Positions 52,194 through 62,880 of a stretch of DNA of 64,000 bases are shown here, piece after piece. The stretch lies in assembly GCA_016284035.1 (NCBI GenBank), contig JAEEOC010000057.1, forward strand, positions 4,903 through 68,902. Direction: 5' to 3'. The DNA comes from Dehalococcoidales bacterium. GTDB taxonomy: Bacteria; Chloroflexota; Dehalococcoidia; Dehalococcoidales; UBA1222. Each line of letters begins with the position of its first letter. Position 1 is the first letter of the stretch. The notes beneath the pieces were generated by a model. That model saw nothing but the letters and a program-made list of their open reading frames with translations, was not told the origin of the DNA and ran no database searches. The position numbers and the translations under genes were made by a program.

Positions 52194-52637
52194 ATGACTA
52201 CTAAACTTTGGAATCCCTTACAGGAAATGCGAATGATGGAGAACCTTGCCAACCGATTGTGGCAGTCCAATGATTATTCCAGCTGCGAAGATTGGAACAT
52301 CTCTCTCGATGTAATGAAGAAAGGCGACACTTTTGCTGTTGCAGCTTCTCTCCCCGGTATCGACGCTAAAGATATCGATGTCTCCATCGAAGATAACGTC
52401 CTTACTATCCGAGCAGAACGCAAGGATCCTGCCGCTGATGACAAGGAGATCACTTACTTGGTAAATGAACGACCTGTCGGTTCTTTCTACCGAGCACTCC
52501 GACTCCCCGAGACCATCGATACTTCCAAGGTCCAGTCTTCCTACAAAGATGGTGTCCTGATGATCACTCTTCCCAAAGCAGAAGAACTGAAGAAGAAGCA
52601 GATCAAGATCGATGTAGCCCCTTCAATCGAAGGCTAA
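52194..52637 (+). CDS. Hsp20/alpha-crystallin-family small heat-shock protein
   Basis: 147 aa with an alpha-crystallin domain (DVMKKGDTFAVAASLPGIDAKDIDVSIEDNVLTIRAER...SFYRALRLP...YKDGVLMITLPK) and an AGGAGG ribosome-binding site. Confidence 0.93.
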   Translation: MTTKLWNPLQEMRMMENLANRLWQSNDYSSCEDWNISLDVMKKGDTFAVAASLPGIDAKDIDVSIEDNVLTIRAERKDPAADDKEITYLVNERPVGSFYRALRLPETIDTSKVQSSYKDGVLMITLPKAEELKKKQIKIDVAPSIEG

Positions 52638-52669: not shown

Positions 52670-52698
52670 GCCCTGGCCGTCGCAAGCCAGGGCTTTTT
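52670..52698 (+). terminator. Intrinsic terminator after hsp20
   Basis: GCCCTGGC / GCCAGGGC stem with an 8-nt loop, followed by TTTTT. Confidence 0.75.
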
Positions 52699-52839
52699 CG
52701 TTTCCGGGATGCATACACAATCTGGACAATCCATGATAGTTGGGGAAAAATACTGTTGAACAATTAACGCACTTCGCCTGTAGGGATCTGCGGTGCGGCT
52801 AATCAATAACGTGAGAACAAAAACCGGGAGAGACTGATC

Positions 52840-55302
52840 ATGGACGATGATTTTGATTTAAAAAGAAGACTCATGGATGAGACGGCCGAGAAGCTGCATA
52901 TATACGTTCGCAAACTGGTCAAGGAAAAGAAAAGAAAACAATCCCAAGCTTTTTGCGAAGAAATGTTTCCACAGATCGCGCGTACAGGTTTTATTAAAAG
53001 GCTGCTTTCTGCACTGATCGATCGGGACACTGAAAGGATTGCGGACTCATCTGCATCTCCGCAGGATACTTACGCTTTTGTTAACAACAGGCTTTCCGAA
53101 AAGATGAAAGTCGTCGGACCGCAAACCGAAACAAACCCCTCGGACAGTGTCATTATCAGCGTCGGTGAAGGCGTCAAACTAAGACTGCAAAGAAAAACTT
53201 CAGGGGATTATGAATGTGCTGTATGCGTACCTGCTGACGAGAGCTATTCAGAAAGCAGTTTTACAGACCCCGATATGCCGGACGGCAAGGAAGAAGCAGC
53301 ACCATTTGTATTTCCGTCTGATCGTCTCGGTTCTTTTTGTTCTGCCGCAGAATACATATTTGACAATGCCCACGATCTGAAGGATTGGGCCAAGCATGAA
53401 TGCTGGGATCTGTGGGAAAAATATGAATATATCGATTATCCCAAAAAAGACGTATATGACAAGGTCCCAGTATACTGGTGGTGGGCATGGCTCCAAAACG
53501 CCTCAGAAAAGGATCTTTCAGACCTTGAATTCATAAAAAAACTGGTCGCTCGTCGCGGCGAGTGCTTAGCATATGCGTTACCTGCGTCCAAAGCGGACAG
53601 AAAGACCGTCCTTGGTGCCATAAAAGATACCGATTACGCCATAACATACGCATCTGAAGAGCTCCAAAACGACCGCGGTTTCGTCCTTCAGGCACTCGAT
53701 GCCAATAGTTATGCATTCCAGTATGTATTAGACAAGTTCAAAGATGACAAGAAAGTGGCACTTAAAGCAGTGTCCAATGTAGGGTCAAACCTCCAATATG
53801 TTTCCGAACGGCTCAAAGGCGATCAGGACGTGGTAGATATCGCATTGGAGCAGGATATGTCCAATTTCCGCTATGCGTCGGAGGCTTTCCGTTCAAATAA
53901 AGAATACGTAATGAAAGCTGTAGCTGAGCGCGGGAAACTGCTCCAGGTGTTGCCAGAACAGCTTCGCTCCGACAGGCAAGTAGTCTTATCTGCAGTAACA
54001 TCCAACGGCGCAGCACTTCAATACGCGTCTGAAATATTTAAAAACGATCGTGAAATCGTACTGACCGCTGTAAATAATTACGGGGCTGCTCTGGAGTACG
54101 CCTCAGACGAGCTTCGTGATGACAAGGAGATCATCTTCGCGGCTGTCGAAAACAATTGGGCATCACTCGAATATGCCTCGGACAGACTCAAGTCCGACAA
54201 AGAGACTGCTCTGTTTACGATAAGCAAGGACAGTGAGGCCTGGCATAATGTTTCTCCTGAACTGTTTTCTGACATTGATATCATAAAAGCAGCACTGGAA
54301 GCAGACGGGTACGAGATCATCGAATCCCTGCCGGACAGCATGCTAAATAACACTGACACGGTCTTATGCATCCTGGAAGCCCTATCTGCGACTCCCCCTG
54401 ACATGGATAATTACGGGGAATTCGCTGACGGGACGAGCGAATATTACAACATTTTTAGAGATGCGGAAGATGCCTTTTGCGACCTCGTGGAGGGACTGAC
54501 CGAAAAGACTCTCAAGAGCGATCATCATCTCGTGAACAAGATATGCGAGTTAGCAGCTTCGCTGGACAGTTCCTATTACGAAGAAGGAGCAAATCCGTAC
54601 GAGGACTCTCATACTCGCCTCCCAGATAGACTTAAGGAATATTTTGAGGAAAACGGTATCCCTTACAGCAATATCATCACAGACGCCATCGATTCAAGGG
54701 AAGCCAAAAAGTACCATCCCAAAGATTACGGCGAAGATATCTCTCTCGAGGATAGCCTTTTCCTCGAGGCGGGAGATTATTACGAATGGCTGGCAGAGAA
54801 GATCCGTAACGAGGAAGGACATGAGGCCTTCACAGATTATCTTAGCCCCAACGGGAGCTGGGTGTTTAACGTAATGGAAAGATTCGTTAAGTCTCTCATC
54901 GCAAACTGGGAGGATCTTTTCCACGATGACGAGCTCTGGCGAGACGAAGATTATGCAGTCGATCTCGACAAAACTTATGAGGAAATAAACAAAAGACTCT
55001 CATCAAAGATGGAGGTCCAGAGAAACGCATTTGAGTATTATTACTCAGAAAACGTCAAAGTACAGGTAAATGAACATATCCTGTTTAAGCTTGTCCGAGA
55101 GCTTCCGCTCAAGATACTCGAACTTTGGGTAAACGATTACGATACCGATCGTGAACGCGGATTCTGGGTGGCTCCGGATAGACTGGATGTTTTCTGCGAT
55201 TTGGCGGAATACGTACATGACAATTACAAAGACTTTGAAGACCGAGCGAAAGAACGGGCATCAAGGATACTGTGGAGATACTCGGACGCAAAGAATGAGT
55301 AA
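52840..55302 (+). CDS. Large repeat protein: about 11-12 tandem 25-aa DUF4116-like repeats flanked by duplicated terminal modules, unknown function
   Basis: 820 aa with no signal peptide or TM segment. The repeat unit resembles xVLxAVxxNGxALxYASxxLKxDKE. Confidence 0.7.
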   Translation: MDDDFDLKRRLMDETAEKLHIYVRKLVKEKKRKQSQAFCEEMFPQIARTGFIKRLLSALIDRDTERIADSSASPQDTYAFVNNRLSEKMKVVGPQTETNPSDSVIISVGEGVKLRLQRKTSGDYECAVCVPADESYSESSFTDPDMPDGKEEAAPFVFPSDRLGSFCSAAEYIFDNAHDLKDWAKHECWDLWEKYEYIDYPKKDVYDKVPVYWWWAWLQNASEKDLSDLEFIKKLVARRGECLAYALPASKADRKTVLGAIKDTDYAITYASEELQNDRGFVLQALDANSYAFQYVLDKFKDDKKVALKAVSNVGSNLQYVSERLKGDQDVVDIALEQDMSNFRYASEAFRSNKEYVMKAVAERGKLLQVLPEQLRSDRQVVLSAVTSNGAALQYASEIFKNDREIVLTAVNNYGAALEYASDELRDDKEIIFAAVENNWASLEYASDRLKSDKETALFTISKDSEAWHNVSPELFSDIDIIKAALEADGYEIIESLPDSMLNNTDTVLCILEALSATPPDMDNYGEFADGTSEYYNIFRDAEDAFCDLVEGLTEKTLKSDHHLVNKICELAASLDSSYYEEGANPYEDSHTRLPDRLKEYFEENGIPYSNIITDAIDSREAKKYHPKDYGEDISLEDSLFLEAGDYYEWLAEKIRNEEGHEAFTDYLSPNGSWVFNVMERFVKSLIANWEDLFHDDELWRDEDYAVDLDKTYEEINKRLSSKMEVQRNAFEYYYSENVKVQVNEHILFKLVRELPLKILELWVNDYDTDRERGFWVAPDRLDVFCDLAEYVHDNYKDFEDRAKERASRILWRYSDAKNE
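53527..54390 (+). repeat. Protein-level tandem repeat array (25-aa period) inside the 820-aa ORF
   Basis: Consecutive units include VVLSAVTSNGAALQYASEIFKNDRE, IVLTAVNNYGAALEYASDELRDDKE and IIFAAVENNWASLEYASDRLKSDKE. Confidence 0.8.
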
Positions 55303-55431
55303 GAAAATCCCCCTGATATGATGATGTGAGATTCTCGATACTTTCCTTCCGGATTGAGACTTATGTCATGTCAGTATCCCGAAAAGTTTTGTATAATAAT
55401 CATTACTTAAAAACTAGACTGGATTTATATT

Positions 55432-55953
55432 ATGGCGATCAGACAGATCTTAGTAGCACCCAATCCTCTCCTTCGAAAGAAGGCTGAGGTAGTTCAGAAT
55501 ATAGATGCATCCATCGTAAAATTGGCCGAAGACATGGTGGAGACGTTGGAAGCTGCCGGCGGGGTAGGTCTCGCCGCGCCGCAGATCGGCGTATCCAAAC
55601 GTGTCATCGTCATCTGGGTTCCCGATGAAGATCCTATCGTCCTGGTCAATCCTAAAGTTGCCAAGCATTTCGGCGAAAGATATGTCACCGAAGGCTGTCT
55701 CAGCGTCCCCCAGATGCAAGGCAAAGTAAAACGTTCCCGCGAAGTGATCGTCAAAGCAGTCGACCCCGCCGGCAGCCCGGTCAGGATCGACGCAACCGGC
55801 CTTAAGGCACAGGCACTGGAACATGAGATCAACCATCTCGACGGCATCCTTTATACTGATCTGATCGTTCCCGGTTCGTTGACGAAGACTCAGATCACCG
55901 AATCCTTTGAAGACGTCATCGACGATGTCTGGCAGAGCAAGCATGTCTCATAA
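55432..55953 (+). CDS. def: Peptide deformylase
   Basis: 173 aa with GVGLAAPQIG, EGCLSVP and HEINHLDG. Confidence 0.96.
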   Translation: MAIRQILVAPNPLLRKKAEVVQNIDASIVKLAEDMVETLEAAGGVGLAAPQIGVSKRVIVIWVPDEDPIVLVNPKVAKHFGERYVTEGCLSVPQMQGKVKRSREVIVKAVDPAGSPVRIDATGLKAQALEHEINHLDGILYTDLIVPGSLTKTQITESFEDVIDDVWQSKHVS

Positions 55954-56590: not shown

Positions 56591-57246
56591 TGATAGTGGC
56601 GTTCTCCGAACAGGAGCGTGCCGACCCTTACGATATTGGCTCCCTCTTCGATACCTACACGATAAGTGCTCGTCATACCCATGGAAAGGTATTTCATTTC
56701 CACATTGGGCACTGTCTGCTTTTTTATATCTTCGAAGAGTTCTTTCGTAAGTTTGAAATACGGCCTGATCTCTTCTGGGTCATCAAGCAATGGACCCATA
56801 GTCATAAGTCCCTGGACAGACAGGTTCGGCAGTGCTGAAACGCTCTTAATGACCTCCAGCGCATCTTCAGGCAGGATCCCGCTCTTCTGTTCCTCACGGG
56901 CGCTGTTGATCTCCAAAAGAATCGGCATCTTTTTCCCTATCTTGCCGCACTGGGTATCCAACGCCTTAGCAAAATGATAGGAATCCACGCTTTCGACCAT
57001 ATCGAAGAGCTGCGCAATGATCTTGGCTTTGTTGGATTGTGCCGTACCGATCATATGCCACATTGCTTTATTGCCGATCACAGGATGGAGTTCCTGCGCT
57101 TCTTTTACATAATTCTCTCCGACATATCTGATGCCGGCATCGATCGCTCGCAACACTTCCTCTGAAGTTCGGGTCTTGATGGCGGCCACGACCCTCACGT
57201 CTTTTGGCACTTCGGCCAGTATCTTTTTTACTGCATCTTCTATCAT
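56587..57246 (-). CDS. yggS: YggS-family pyridoxal-phosphate homeostasis protein
   Basis: 219 aa with VVAAIKTRT (PLP-binding lysine), WHMIGTAQSNK and LSMGMTSTY. Confidence 0.9.
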   Translation of the reverse strand: MIEDAVKKILAEVPKDVRVVAAIKTRTSEEVLRAIDAGIRYVGENYVKEAQELHPVIGNKAMWHMIGTAQSNKAKIIAQLFDMVESVDSYHFAKALDTQCGKIGKKMPILLEINSAREEQKSGILPEDALEVIKSVSALPNLSVQGLMTMGPLLDDPEEIRPYFKLTKELFEDIKKQTVPNVEMKYLSMGMTSTYRVGIEEGANIVRVGTLLFGERHYH

Positions 57247-57350
57247 TGCCAGACCTTCCTTATCTGCCGGTGATTTACCAGGTTATTCAAGTAAAGCATT
57301 ATTTTGTATTTCTTGCTACAATTCTATGCAGAAGACTACGGAGGCCATGT

Positions 57351-58514
57351 ATGAAAAAACAGAAGTTTTTCAGTATTTTTCTTTCGGCTGTACTCTGCTT
57401 AGCCGTCGCGCTGACTTCAGCTTGCGACCCGCTGAGTTGTAATAATAAAAATGGCGACCTTGATCCGGACGCTACTCCCGATCTTGAGAAGATCATCGCA
57501 AAATATCCTGACTCCGCCTACTGTGAAGTGTATGGCACTGCTTCCAACACTGATATAGACTTCGATATCAAAGCAAAAGTCTATTCTGAGACCAATCATG
57601 CCAGGATCGACACCAACATGATGAAGTTCCCGGTCTCGATCTACATGGATTACGATACAGGTGACGATTATATCTATGTCTCTCTTCTTAAGAAAGCACT
57701 AAAAGTATCCATCGATCTTTCTGATTATGCCCCTCATGTCCTCATCAAGGATCTGGATCTCTCCAAATGCACGATCCTGGGCGAACAGGTCGTCGACGGC
57801 AAAAAATGCGCAGTATTCGTTTATGAAGACGCTCTTCCTTTGAGTTCAGATTACAATTCACGAAGCACCACCATCTGGCTCTGGGAAGACTACGGCTTCC
57901 CTGTCAGGATGGAGACTTCTGACGTTTATATCACTTTCAGCAAGATGTCTTTCAAAGATATCGATGACGAAAAATTCGTCCTGCCCGGAAAAGCCAGTGT
58001 TATCGATGCATCCGGTTTATTTGATCTAAGCGGTCTTTTAGGTGGCATCGATCTCGACAATATCGGGAACGGGGAAGGTAACGGCGATGATCCTGATGAT
58101 ACTGGTGCCATCAACCTTTCTGACATCCTCAGCGGCCTCACCGGTAATGGTGAAGGCGGCAGCATAATAGATATACTGGGAGGTCTTACCGGCAATGGTG
58201 ATTCATCCGAAGGCCTCGGAAACCTTTTCGATCTTTTAGGCAGTCTCAGCGGATCTGGCGATGGTAATTCATCAGGCTCCGGAGACGGATCTATCGATCT
58301 CGGAAACCTTCTTGAAGGACTCAATGATTACGAAGGCGGCTCTGTCAATGAAGACGACCTCGGAAATCTCCTAGACGCACTGAACGGCTCTGAAGGCGGT
58401 TCCGGCGATGGCGACCTGGGCGACCTTTTTGATCTGCTTGAAGGCCTCGGAGGTTCAGGCAGCGGTTCTTCTGGTCTGGGCGGACTTGGCAGCCTCATCA
58501 ACATATTTAATTAG
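57351..58514 (+). CDS. Lipoprotein: LolA-like/DUF4367-like domain plus a Gly/Asp/Ser-rich repeat tail
   Basis: From the ATG at 57351 (behind GGAGG) it reads MKKQKFFSIFLSAVLCLAVALTSAC-D, a lipobox. The track ORF's 5' extension overlaps yggS on the opposite strand. Confidence 0.7.
   Translation: MKKQKFFSIFLSAVLCLAVALTSACDPLSCNNKNGDLDPDATPDLEKIIAKYPDSAYCEVYGTASNTDIDFDIKAKVYSETNHARIDTNMMKFPVSIYMDYDTGDDYIYVSLLKKALKVSIDLSDYAPHVLIKDLDLSKCTILGEQVVDGKKCAVFVYEDALPLSSDYNSRSTTIWLWEDYGFPVRMETSDVYITFSKMSFKDIDDEKFVLPGKASVIDASGLFDLSGLLGGIDLDNIGNGEGNGDDPDDTGAINLSDILSGLTGNGEGGSIIDILGGLTGNGDSSEGLGNLFDLLGSLSGSGDGNSSGSGDGSIDLGNLLEGLNDYEGGSVNEDDLGNLLDALNGSEGGSGDGDLGDLFDLLEGLGGSGSGSSGLGGLGSLINIFN
58000..58511 (+). 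repeat. Degenerate protein-level repeats (D/N)L(F/L)DLLxGLxG(S/N)G(D/E)G
   Basis: About nine copies, for example LSDILSGLTGNGEGG, IIDILGGLTGNGDSS, LGNLFDLLGSLSGSGDGN, LGNLLDALNGSEGGSGDG and LGDLFDLLEGLGGSGSG. Confidence 0.7.
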
Positions 58515-61569: not shown

Positions 61570-62880
61570 ATGGAGCCTGCCGAGAGTATTTGGAAAGCGG
61601 TGCTAGGTGTTATACAGCTAGCCGTCACCAAATCTAACTATAAAACTTGGTTTGCTGACACAAAAGGCCTGTCGATGACAGACAAGACTTTTGTGGTCGG
61701 TGTGAAAGATGATTTTACTGCTGCCTGTTTGAAGCAAAACCACCTTCCTTTGGTGGAGAGACATCTTTTCAAACAGATCGGCAGGAAAGTATCAGTTGAA
61801 TTCACCGTGGATTGGGATCCGTCCCGACCTGCCACCCAGGAAGACAAGAACATCTGTGCGCTTTACCATCTGCGCCCGGAGCTTTCTTTTGAGAACTTTG
61901 TGGTCGGTCCTTCCAACCAGCTTGCTCATGCCGCCGCACTCAGCATCGCTGACGGAAATGCTGATAACCAATTCAATCCGCTCTTTATCTGTGCATCTCC
62001 CGGCTTAGGCAAGACACATCTGCTTCAGGCTATCGGGCAGAGATCGGTCGAGCATAATCTCAGGCCGCTTTATACTTCCTGCTCATCTTTGATATCGGAA
62101 TGCATCCGCTCCTTCTCCAACGGCACGACCGATATGGTCAAGGAAAAATATGCATCTGCCGATGTGCTCATGGTGGATGATATCCACGACCTTGCCGGCA
62201 AAGAAGCAACACAGGATATTTTCTTCAGCATCTTCAACTCCGCCAGAGAAGCCGGACATCAGATCGTAGTGACATCCGACAGAACTCCGGCCGATATGGA
62301 CCGCATTGCAGACCGACTCAAGAGCCGCTTCGAATGGGGTCTGATCACCGATATCCAGGCGCCGGAATATGAGACCAGATTGGCAATCATCAAGACCCGT
62401 GTCCATGGAAGGCAGGTCGATCTCTCTGACGAGATGATTTCTGCCATTGCCGAGGCACCGTGCACCAGCATCCGCGAACTGGAAGGCAGACTCAACAAAG
62501 TTATTGCTTATGCGACATTGCTGAAAGAACCGATCACGATGGACATCATAAAGAAAGCTTTACGCGGACAGAATCATGTTCCATCCTGTGACAGCAGTTC
62601 TGACATCGATGGTCTCATCAAAGATATTGCTTCTTCGTTTGGGGTGACCCCCGAAAAGATACTTGGTTCCGACAGAGACCAGAAGACTGCTCTTGCCAGA
62701 CAGGTCGCGATGTATGTTCTGAAACAGCGAGGCCTGTCTCTTGCTGCAGCAGGGCAGGCTGTCGGCAACCGCAATGCTTCGACCGTTTCCCACGCTGTAA
62801 ATAAGGTTGAACAGCTCATTGTGACCGACAGCGAGTTGCTCGATATCGTATCGAAACTCTGTCCCGGTCTTTCAAAGTAG
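61570..62880 (+). CDS. dnaA: Chromosomal replication initiator protein DnaA
   Basis: 436 aa with an N-terminal W..VL......S...Y.TW motif, Walker A GLGKTHL, box VII and a C-terminal HTH (DQKTALARQVAMY...GNRNASTVSHA). Confidence 0.97.
   Translation: MEPAESIWKAVLGVIQLAVTKSNYKTWFADTKGLSMTDKTFVVGVKDDFTAACLKQNHLPLVERHLFKQIGRKVSVEFTVDWDPSRPATQEDKNICALYHLRPELSFENFVVGPSNQLAHAAALSIADGNADNQFNPLFICASPGLGKTHLLQAIGQRSVEHNLRPLYTSCSSLISECIRSFSNGTTDMVKEKYASADVLMVDDIHDLAGKEATQDIFFSIFNSAREAGHQIVVTSDRTPADMDRIADRLKSRFEWGLITDIQAPEYETRLAIIKTRVHGRQVDLSDEMISAIAEAPCTSIRELEGRLNKVIAYATLLKEPITMDIIKKALRGQNHVPSCDSSSDIDGLIKDIASSFGVTPEKILGSDRDQKTALARQVAMYVLKQRGLSLAAAGQAVGNRNASTVSHAVNKVEQLIVTDSELLDIVSKLCPGLSK

Follow-up and report, generated by a model that had tools for sequence, protein, structure and literature searches.

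Within a 64,000-nucleotide stretch of a Dehalococcoidales genome (assembly GCA_016284035.1, contig JAEEOC010000057.1; the whole stretch is hereafter the window) lies a gene for an 820-amino-acid (aa) protein in which two related terminal modules, N and C, bracket an array of DUF4116 repeats and a helical middle region. Comparison with its relatives indicates that this protein and its full-length homologues are in-frame fusions of a two-gene operon, in which a short upstream gene, S, corresponds to the N module and a downstream gene of about 627 aa to the repeats, the middle region and the C module. We hold the anatomy and the fusion origin described here to be very probably correct. By its repeats the protein is a bona fide member of the DUF4116 family, a repeat-scaffold protein with what looks like a novel terminal domain that was duplicated by fusion.

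Homology of the terminal modules

An earlier note on this DNA, made from the letters alone, had proposed that the two ends of the protein are homologous to each other, and alignment bears this out. The N and C modules are 31% identical over 114 aa (pairwise E 1e-9), with a Smith-Waterman score of 106 against 33 ± 6 in shuffles (z=12), a score that none of 2,000 shuffles reached. Weak similarity extends further, pairing aa 3–195 with aa 631–814, and a hidden Markov model (HMM) of the module family matches aa 1–197 and aa 631–815 of the protein. Predicted topology is the same at both ends: three to four helices, a short helix, a four-strand meander with a fifth strand, and a long C-terminal helix. 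Because the helical N-terminal half is thus also common to both, as judged from this identical topology and from the full-length alignment of the S family, the homologous module spans about 190 aa (aa ~1–197 and ~633–820); the limits first drawn for it, 53083–53460 and 54976–55299 (126 and 108 aa), are too short. Motifs of the module family recur in both copies (F.K.L, RLS, [YF]SE..V, L.R and PD...FC..AEY..DN), and the C module is made up of helices, a five-stranded sheet and a 40-residue C-terminal helix, with the motifs YYSE..V, LVR and PD...FC..AEY..DN.

Evidence for a gene fusion

Eight proteins of 760–825 aa are homologous to the window protein over its full length (57–96% identity), whereas about 30 clusters of ~627-aa homologues lack the N module, aligning to query aa 196–815 at 38–49% identity; in repeat number, middle region and C module they match the window protein. 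Immediately ahead of the 627-aa gene, on the same strand, lies the unannotated S gene (~206–209 aa), whose product aligns full-length to the window N module (aa 8–195; E 1e-5 to 1e-6) and also to the C module (E 1e-13). Clustering of all open reading frames (ORFs) across 40 loci showed three arrangements of these genes. S followed by the 627-aa gene occurs at 12 or more loci, usually with a conserved 23-nt spacer (ATCATACGGAAACCGGTGTwTTT) and in one case (L029) with the S stop and the 627-aa gene start overlapping; the 627-aa gene alone occurs at about nine, one of which has an S remnant (L019); and the fused ~820-aa gene is found in the window, in L010 and in L001-3/L011. The S + 627-aa pairs, from metagenome-assembled genomes (MAGs) of rumen Clostridia, Spirochaetales and Bacteroidales, are thus two genes where the window type is a fused derivative.

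The symmetric design could instead have come about by internal duplication, the C-terminal module being copied to the N-terminus within one gene, as the earlier note implied; within single proteins, N is 27–31% identical to C. Sequence relationships point elsewhere. N modules score higher with S than with C (median BLAST score 46 bits for N–S against 30 bits for N–C) and join the S clade in a neighbour-joining tree, in which the window C module falls among C modules from proteins without an N module. An N-terminal helix, ATEKLxxYV, and an insertion before the last strand are common to N and S and absent from C; the loop before that strand is shorter and different in N modules compared with S. 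S is, moreover, located exactly where an N module is expected, in the same orientation and 23 nt upstream. Across the junction the window reads ..DLWEKYEY-IDYPKKDVYDKVP, and the counterparts of this stretch are the end of S (..ERKKYDL and the stop), a 23-nt spacer that has been lost, and the opening ~7 codons of the 627-aa gene (METIEKYKDCKKEDVIRKVP, with which its proteins start). Given the shared helix and insertion, the higher N–S scores with the tree, and the colinear junction, the N module is an orthologue of S and not a recent copy of C, and an internal duplication becomes very improbable. It follows that the S/C duplication is ancient and that the symmetric module–repeat–module design is a product of operon fusion.

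This arrangement is that of Rosetta-stone pairs, in which genes adjacent in many genomes form one colinear polypeptide in another lineage; unlike the usual case, both fused partners here carry paralogous domains, which gives a pseudo-symmetric end-to-end design.

Several loci depart from these arrangements. In L019 the intergenic interval 784–902 holds a remnant of S only (DPYYIDMAPIHETVKK, ending YNL and a stop) upstream of an intact 627-aa gene, and in L030 (6017–6645) a frameshift divides S into ORFs of 108 aa and 103 aa. A 381-aa gene in L017 (4545–5690) joins a complete S module straight to a C module (MAEEKAREER meeting LFYEKLDLYEK), with the whole DUF4116 array and middle region deleted, which may reflect recombination between the paralogous modules or an artefact of MAG assembly. 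A 212-aa gene downstream of P0009 (L008) was considered as a displaced S and rejected, being an unrelated, lipoprotein-like protein.

Table 1. Features of the 820-aa gene and recurrent neighbours of its relatives. Positions are those of the window unless a locus is named.
Feature	Position	Strand	Basis or remark
Complete ORF, ATG start, 820 aa and stop, acidic N-terminus	52840..55302	+	96%-identical orthologue P0001 in same synteny
N module (aa 1-197), undescribed alpha/beta domain, orthologue of standalone ~209-aa S gene	52840..53430	+	Module HMM, alignment, clustering with S
Fusion junction (aa 193-210, WEKYEY-IDYPKKDVYDKV)	53416..53469	+	Colinear with S C-terminus and 627-aa N-terminus
DUF4116 array (aa 204-528): 12-13 repeats, each exactly 25 aa; alpha-solenoid predicted, most residues at pLDDT 90-98	53449..54423	+	Pfam, AlphaFold2 model, fixed register
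Conserved acidic helical middle region (aa 529-632), family-specific, no known domain	54424..54735	+	Alignment, model
C module (aa 633-820), ancient paralogue of N/S module	54736..55299	+	Alignment, shuffles, model, HMM
Shine-Dalgarno-like GGGAGAG, 7 nt 5' of ATG	52826..52832	+	Sequence
Intrinsic-terminator-like hairpin, 8-bp stem with 7 GC pairs, then T run, TTTTTCGTTT	52670..52693	+	Closes upstream hsp20 unit
c1 copies	L001 4532-5974; L004 3926-5347; L025 3289-4734; L039 2070-3527		54-58% identity between loci
c3 (173 aa), directly downstream of 627-aa gene	L006 7953-8399; also L007, L031, L032, L034, L035		
c2 (~344 aa), directly downstream of 627-aa gene	L006 8433-9467; also L007, L031, L032, L034, L035		

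The module family

A module profile built from N, C and S sequences and searched with HMMER against 1.84 billion representative proteins (E ≤ 1e-3) recovered only 42 matches, many of them fragments, and a word-index search with the C module alone returned 3 fragments only. The module occurs by itself (~195–222 aa), at the end of proteins composed of DUF4116 repeats and the middle region, at both ends of such proteins, behind seven Sel1 repeats (P0232, P0236), and ahead of an unrelated C-terminal extension of ~120 aa (P0233, P0241, P0235). Since it is found alone, after Sel1 repeats and with other C-terminal extensions, it behaves as an independent domain. The gene for P0232 (L040 5001–6557), present on at least 24 contigs, lies on a ruminant metagenome scaffold in an archaeal-looking neighbourhood that includes genes for RNA_pol_L_2 (RpoL-like), TruD and an ATP-dependent DNA ligase; from this company of archaeal-type genes, the module probably crosses the boundary between bacteria and archaea within the rumen.

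An AlphaFold2 model of the module alone, built on a 48-sequence alignment, is confident (predicted local distance difference test (pLDDT) 92, predicted template modelling (TM) score 0.88). The module matches no known domain, so that neither of the two outcomes named in the earlier note as counting against it came about: Foldseek returned nothing significant, the best E being 0.38 in the PDB and 0.023, at low TM, in BFVD, the module profile had no match among PDB sequences, per-member scans of the 48 sequences gave no consistent Pfam family, and NCBIfam gave no relative. Lumazine_bd_2 came up in 4 of the 48 members (best E 0.0065) and was judged noise. The terminal module and the middle region both appear undescribed to date.

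One role open to such a domain is that of a functional head, an enzyme or a binder of small molecules or nucleic acids, which the DUF4116 or Sel1 arrays would target or regulate. Its occurrence both by itself and with two repeat types that are unrelated to each other suits this idea, as do the PD...FC..AEY..DN motif, near-invariant polar residues (few in number, one Cys among them) and an alpha-beta-alpha sandwich with faint frataxin/CyaY-like and integron-cassette-protein-like Foldseek matches. All of these fold matches are, however, non-significant (E > 0.3, TM ≤ 0.43), and the lack of a Pfam, NCBIfam or PDB sequence relative tells against the idea too; no His/Asp/Ser constellation typical of hydrolases is conserved, and two copies per system suit an interaction role better. 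We consider a functional head unlikely.

The repeat array and middle region

The identification of the central repeats as DUF4116, first made by eye, is secure: PF13475 was the only Pfam family to match the 820-aa protein at E ≤ 1 (E 2.1e-84; 277.3 bits against a gathering cut-off of 24.9), in nine stretches of its 49-aa, two-repeat model, and no Sel1, TPR, HEAT, ARM or ankyrin model matched at that threshold. A search of NCBIfam with the same protein gave nothing meaningful. The 11–12 repeats of 25-aa period counted previously correspond to 12–13 units in strict register (consensus ..VL.AV...G..L.YASE.L..D), and the limits then given, 53527–54390, describe the well-conserved core of an array that is longer in full (Table 1). 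Tandem Repeats Finder gave no 75-nt period in the array; the units therefore appear old and diverged, and a recent expansion of the repeat was rejected on the same ground. In the full-length AlphaFold2 model (mean pLDDT 84; 40-sequence alignment) a helix triplet recurs every 25 residues across the array at pLDDT 90–98. The one published model of the DUF4116 family is an alpha-solenoid (PMC8078820), in agreement with the 25-aa period and the solenoid prediction here. In the middle region, near-invariant residues include Y535, Y536, F546, Y579 and Y580; known-domain searches with this region, which took in Pfam, NCBIfam, PADLOC, PHROGs and PDB sequence profiles, gave no consistent match.

Bacteria, protists, giant viruses and phages all carry the widespread DUF4116 repeat, for which no function is reported in the literature searched. 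The window protein resembles other DUF4116 proteins in its central 325 aa, with their 25-aa period and alpha-solenoid; generic members share the repeat alone (25–38% query coverage) and have neither the middle region nor the terminal modules of the window subfamily. HEAT/ARM solenoids (importin-beta, beta-catenin, the PP2A A subunit) gave the best yet weak Foldseek matches of the full-length model, which shares with them an elongated stack of short helices; similarity is not significant (E ≥ 4.5e-3, TM ≤ 0.18) and their repeat is ~40 aa against 25 aa here, so that this is a resemblance and not membership. The sole PDB sequence match of the whole protein is a weak one to 4exr_A, a 174-aa 'putative lipoprotein' (E 0.0024), over aa 327–378 (53818–53973), that is, two repeat units; 4exr_A may be a solved structure of a DUF4116-like repeat.

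The gene and its surroundings

The 820-aa ORF was found between hsp20 and def as the earlier note described it, and its stand-alone position behind a terminator held as well, a hairpin and T run being located upstream (Table 1). Its upstream neighbour encodes Hsp20 (52194–52637; PF00011, E 1e-24) and its downstream neighbour peptide deformylase (def, 55432–55953; PF01327, E 2e-43). Ahead of def is a promoter-like site (55368–55397), and no terminator was detected in the interval from the ORF to def. Also as previously stated, the protein is cytoplasmic, lacking a signal peptide, and has no recognisable catalytic domain by Pfam, NCBIfam, PADLOC, PHROGs, PDB sequences or Foldseek.

P0001, a 96%-identical orthologue from a Dehalococcoidales MAG that carries the NCBI name 'DUF4116 domain-containing protein', has the same downstream synteny as the window: def, HAD, YggS-like, hisS, fmt, dnaA and gyrB. 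In this Dehalococcoidales lineage the gene thus has a stable place in a core region close to the origin. dnaA itself lies at 61570–62880 (+; Bac_DnaA, DnaA_N, Bac_DnaA_C) and gyrB comes next to it in the orthologous contig L010, which places the chromosomal origin region within the window. Further along, at 57204–58514 (+), is a 436-aa ORF without a Pfam match, the last ~150 aa of which form an extreme Gly/Ser/Asp/Leu-rich low-complexity tract (GNGEGNGDDPDD and GSGDGNSSGSGDG); its L010 orthologue is called shorter, at 387 aa, so the real start is probably downstream of the TTG.

Distribution and neighbourhoods

In a scan with C-module patterns over one genome per GTDB species, all 29 genome loci came from ruminant-gut MAG sets (RUG, RGIG, Tb.RUG, UBA), with host labels that include Clostridia/Ruminococcaceae/Lachnospiraceae, Bacteroidales and Selenomonadales, among others; some lie on contigs of 100–700 kb. 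One further carrier is a Spirochaetales MAG. The family is rare, found only in ruminant-gut metagenome genomes, and spread over several bacterial phyla. On the question, raised by the earlier note, of how far the terminal module keeps its surroundings, the neighbourhood is retained with P0001 and differs in the other relatives.

Confinement to a protozoa-rich habitat might suggest a eukaryote-like effector aimed at rumen protozoa or fungi, the more so as DUF4116 is abundant in protists and amoeba-associated bacteria and the DUF4116 matches include proteins of Naegleria, Symbiodinium and Rhabdochlamydia. Yet eukaryotic proteins resemble it only in the generic repeat (25–35% query coverage), the protein has neither a signal peptide nor a recognisable secretion signal, and the hosts are free-living anaerobes of several phyla together with an archaeon-like contig. 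Such an effector seems to us scarcely credible.

The patchy, cross-phylum and habitat-bound distribution suggests horizontal acquisition of the family. The window copy itself has normal composition: compared with the 48 other genes among the 49 of the window, its GC content (0.462 versus 0.481 ± 0.025), third-position GC content (GC3; 0.493 versus 0.540 ± 0.050) and codon usage (log-likelihood z −0.83) all fall within 1 standard deviation, and the hint of foreign origin that the earlier note drew from low-GC lines finds no support in the composition analysis it proposed. Around the gene there are no flanking insertion repeats beyond matches of chance length and no adjacent tRNA, and with the normal composition this led us to reject a foreign-origin signal as evidence of recent transfer. 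If the 820-aa gene was horizontally acquired, it is fully ameliorated in this genome.

Around the relatives, uncharacterised genes recur. A gene that we label c1 (~473–485 aa) adjoins the DUF4116-module gene in four contexts independent of one another, which include fused as well as split forms. The window has no copy of c1, which may be a partner in function or a passenger carried along in transfer. The genes c2 and c3 are limited to one group of rumen Clostridia MAGs. Pfam, PADLOC and the PDB gave no significant match to any of the three products, and their PHROGs matches are weak (best E 0.003) and to families without known function; c10 likewise gave no consistent match in known-domain searches. 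A 473-aa protein in L006 was rejected as a c1 homologue, being unrelated, with weak sugar-isomerase-like matches. Some neighbours are of the kind seen in defence islands: a ResIII/RE_endonuc protein upstream in L001 (1–2195) and an SLFN/AlbA_2 + HATPase_c_4 protein downstream in L004 (8393–9820). Near the window copy there are no such genes.

These surroundings raise the possibility that the protein is a component of inter-microbial or anti-phage conflict, in which the solenoid would capture a toxin or a phage protein and the two modules, S and C, would serve as sensor or effector, possibly with c1, c2 and c3. Patchy cross-phylum spread inside one dense habitat fits such a role, as do the variable neighbourhoods of same-strand uncharacterised genes, the two defence-island-like neighbours just named, the four independent contexts of c1, and the occurrence of DUF4116 repeats in the phage protein family phrog_31839; helical-repeat (Sel1) immunity proteins, moreover, exist for some type VI lipase effectors. 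Against this, PADLOC-DB 2.0, which covers known anti-phage defence systems, gave nothing significant for the protein, for the module or for most of the partners: the window protein and S module reach E 0.026–0.035 at best, over short stretches, and the sole match below 1e-3 is a short, weak one between a 562-aa neighbour in L001 and the candidate family PDC-S64 (E 9.5e-05). There is no toxin, nuclease, NTPase or secretion domain, and aa 521–820 have no match in phage and plasmid collections. With regard to polymorphic toxin/immunity systems, we found no signal or trafficking domain, a C module that is conserved and not polymorphic, and downstream genes that vary by locus. The window gene, too, stands alone without a partner among housekeeping genes near dnaA (hsp20, def, hisS, fmt). 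A conflict role is therefore doubtful in our assessment.

Discussion

Taken as a whole, these observations are, by a modest margin of belief, best explained by a fused-operon scaffold with pairing modules and a partner-binding solenoid. The pairing and scaffolding mechanism itself we put forward more tentatively. S and C modules, or N and C in the fused protein, would pair as a pseudo-symmetric heterodimer descended from a homodimer; the pairing is proposed because the modules are paralogous, encoded in tight tandem and fused into one chain, by Rosetta-stone logic. Fusion of adjacent genes is established to predict physical or functional interaction, and paralogous domains commonly keep an ancestral self-association. 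Pairing of N with C may bring the ends of the solenoid together as a closed clamp, or may link molecules head to tail, while the concave surface of the solenoid would bind a protein partner. On this view the gene would encode a binding scaffold or adaptor that is not an enzyme, whose role is accessory and tied to the habitat, and which has spread by horizontal transfer.

Two points qualify this scaffold model: about nine loci have no S gene or a decayed one, so that S is not obligatory, and a ligand-binding or active site could be what the conserved polar residues of the module mark. The earlier suggestion of a scaffold or bivalent binder remains the most reasonable reading. It draws indirect backing from the N module being encoded, in most relatives, by a gene of its own in tight linkage, a Rosetta-stone pattern that implies interaction; the symmetry, though, has its origin in fusion and not in duplication.

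A bolder version can be entertained as a long shot, in which the S/C module is a new-fold heterodimerising 'clasp' that closes or polymerises DUF4116 or Sel1 solenoids and, with c1, c2 and c3, forms an unrecognised accessory system of the ruminant gut, horizontally exchanged among bacteria and archaea and possibly a conflict or defence module.

The family is small, which limits its impact, and the question is neither urgent nor paradigm-changing. The subfamily nonetheless has a strikingly narrow ruminant-gut spread across phyla and a confidently modelled, apparently new terminal domain that is also paired with Sel1 repeats, and its two-component system of S and DUF4116-module proteins, with the interaction that its fusion predicts, offers a tractable handle on DUF4116. 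Identifying the binding partners of the modules and of the solenoid would open a first functional entry to DUF4116 and describe a new domain family.

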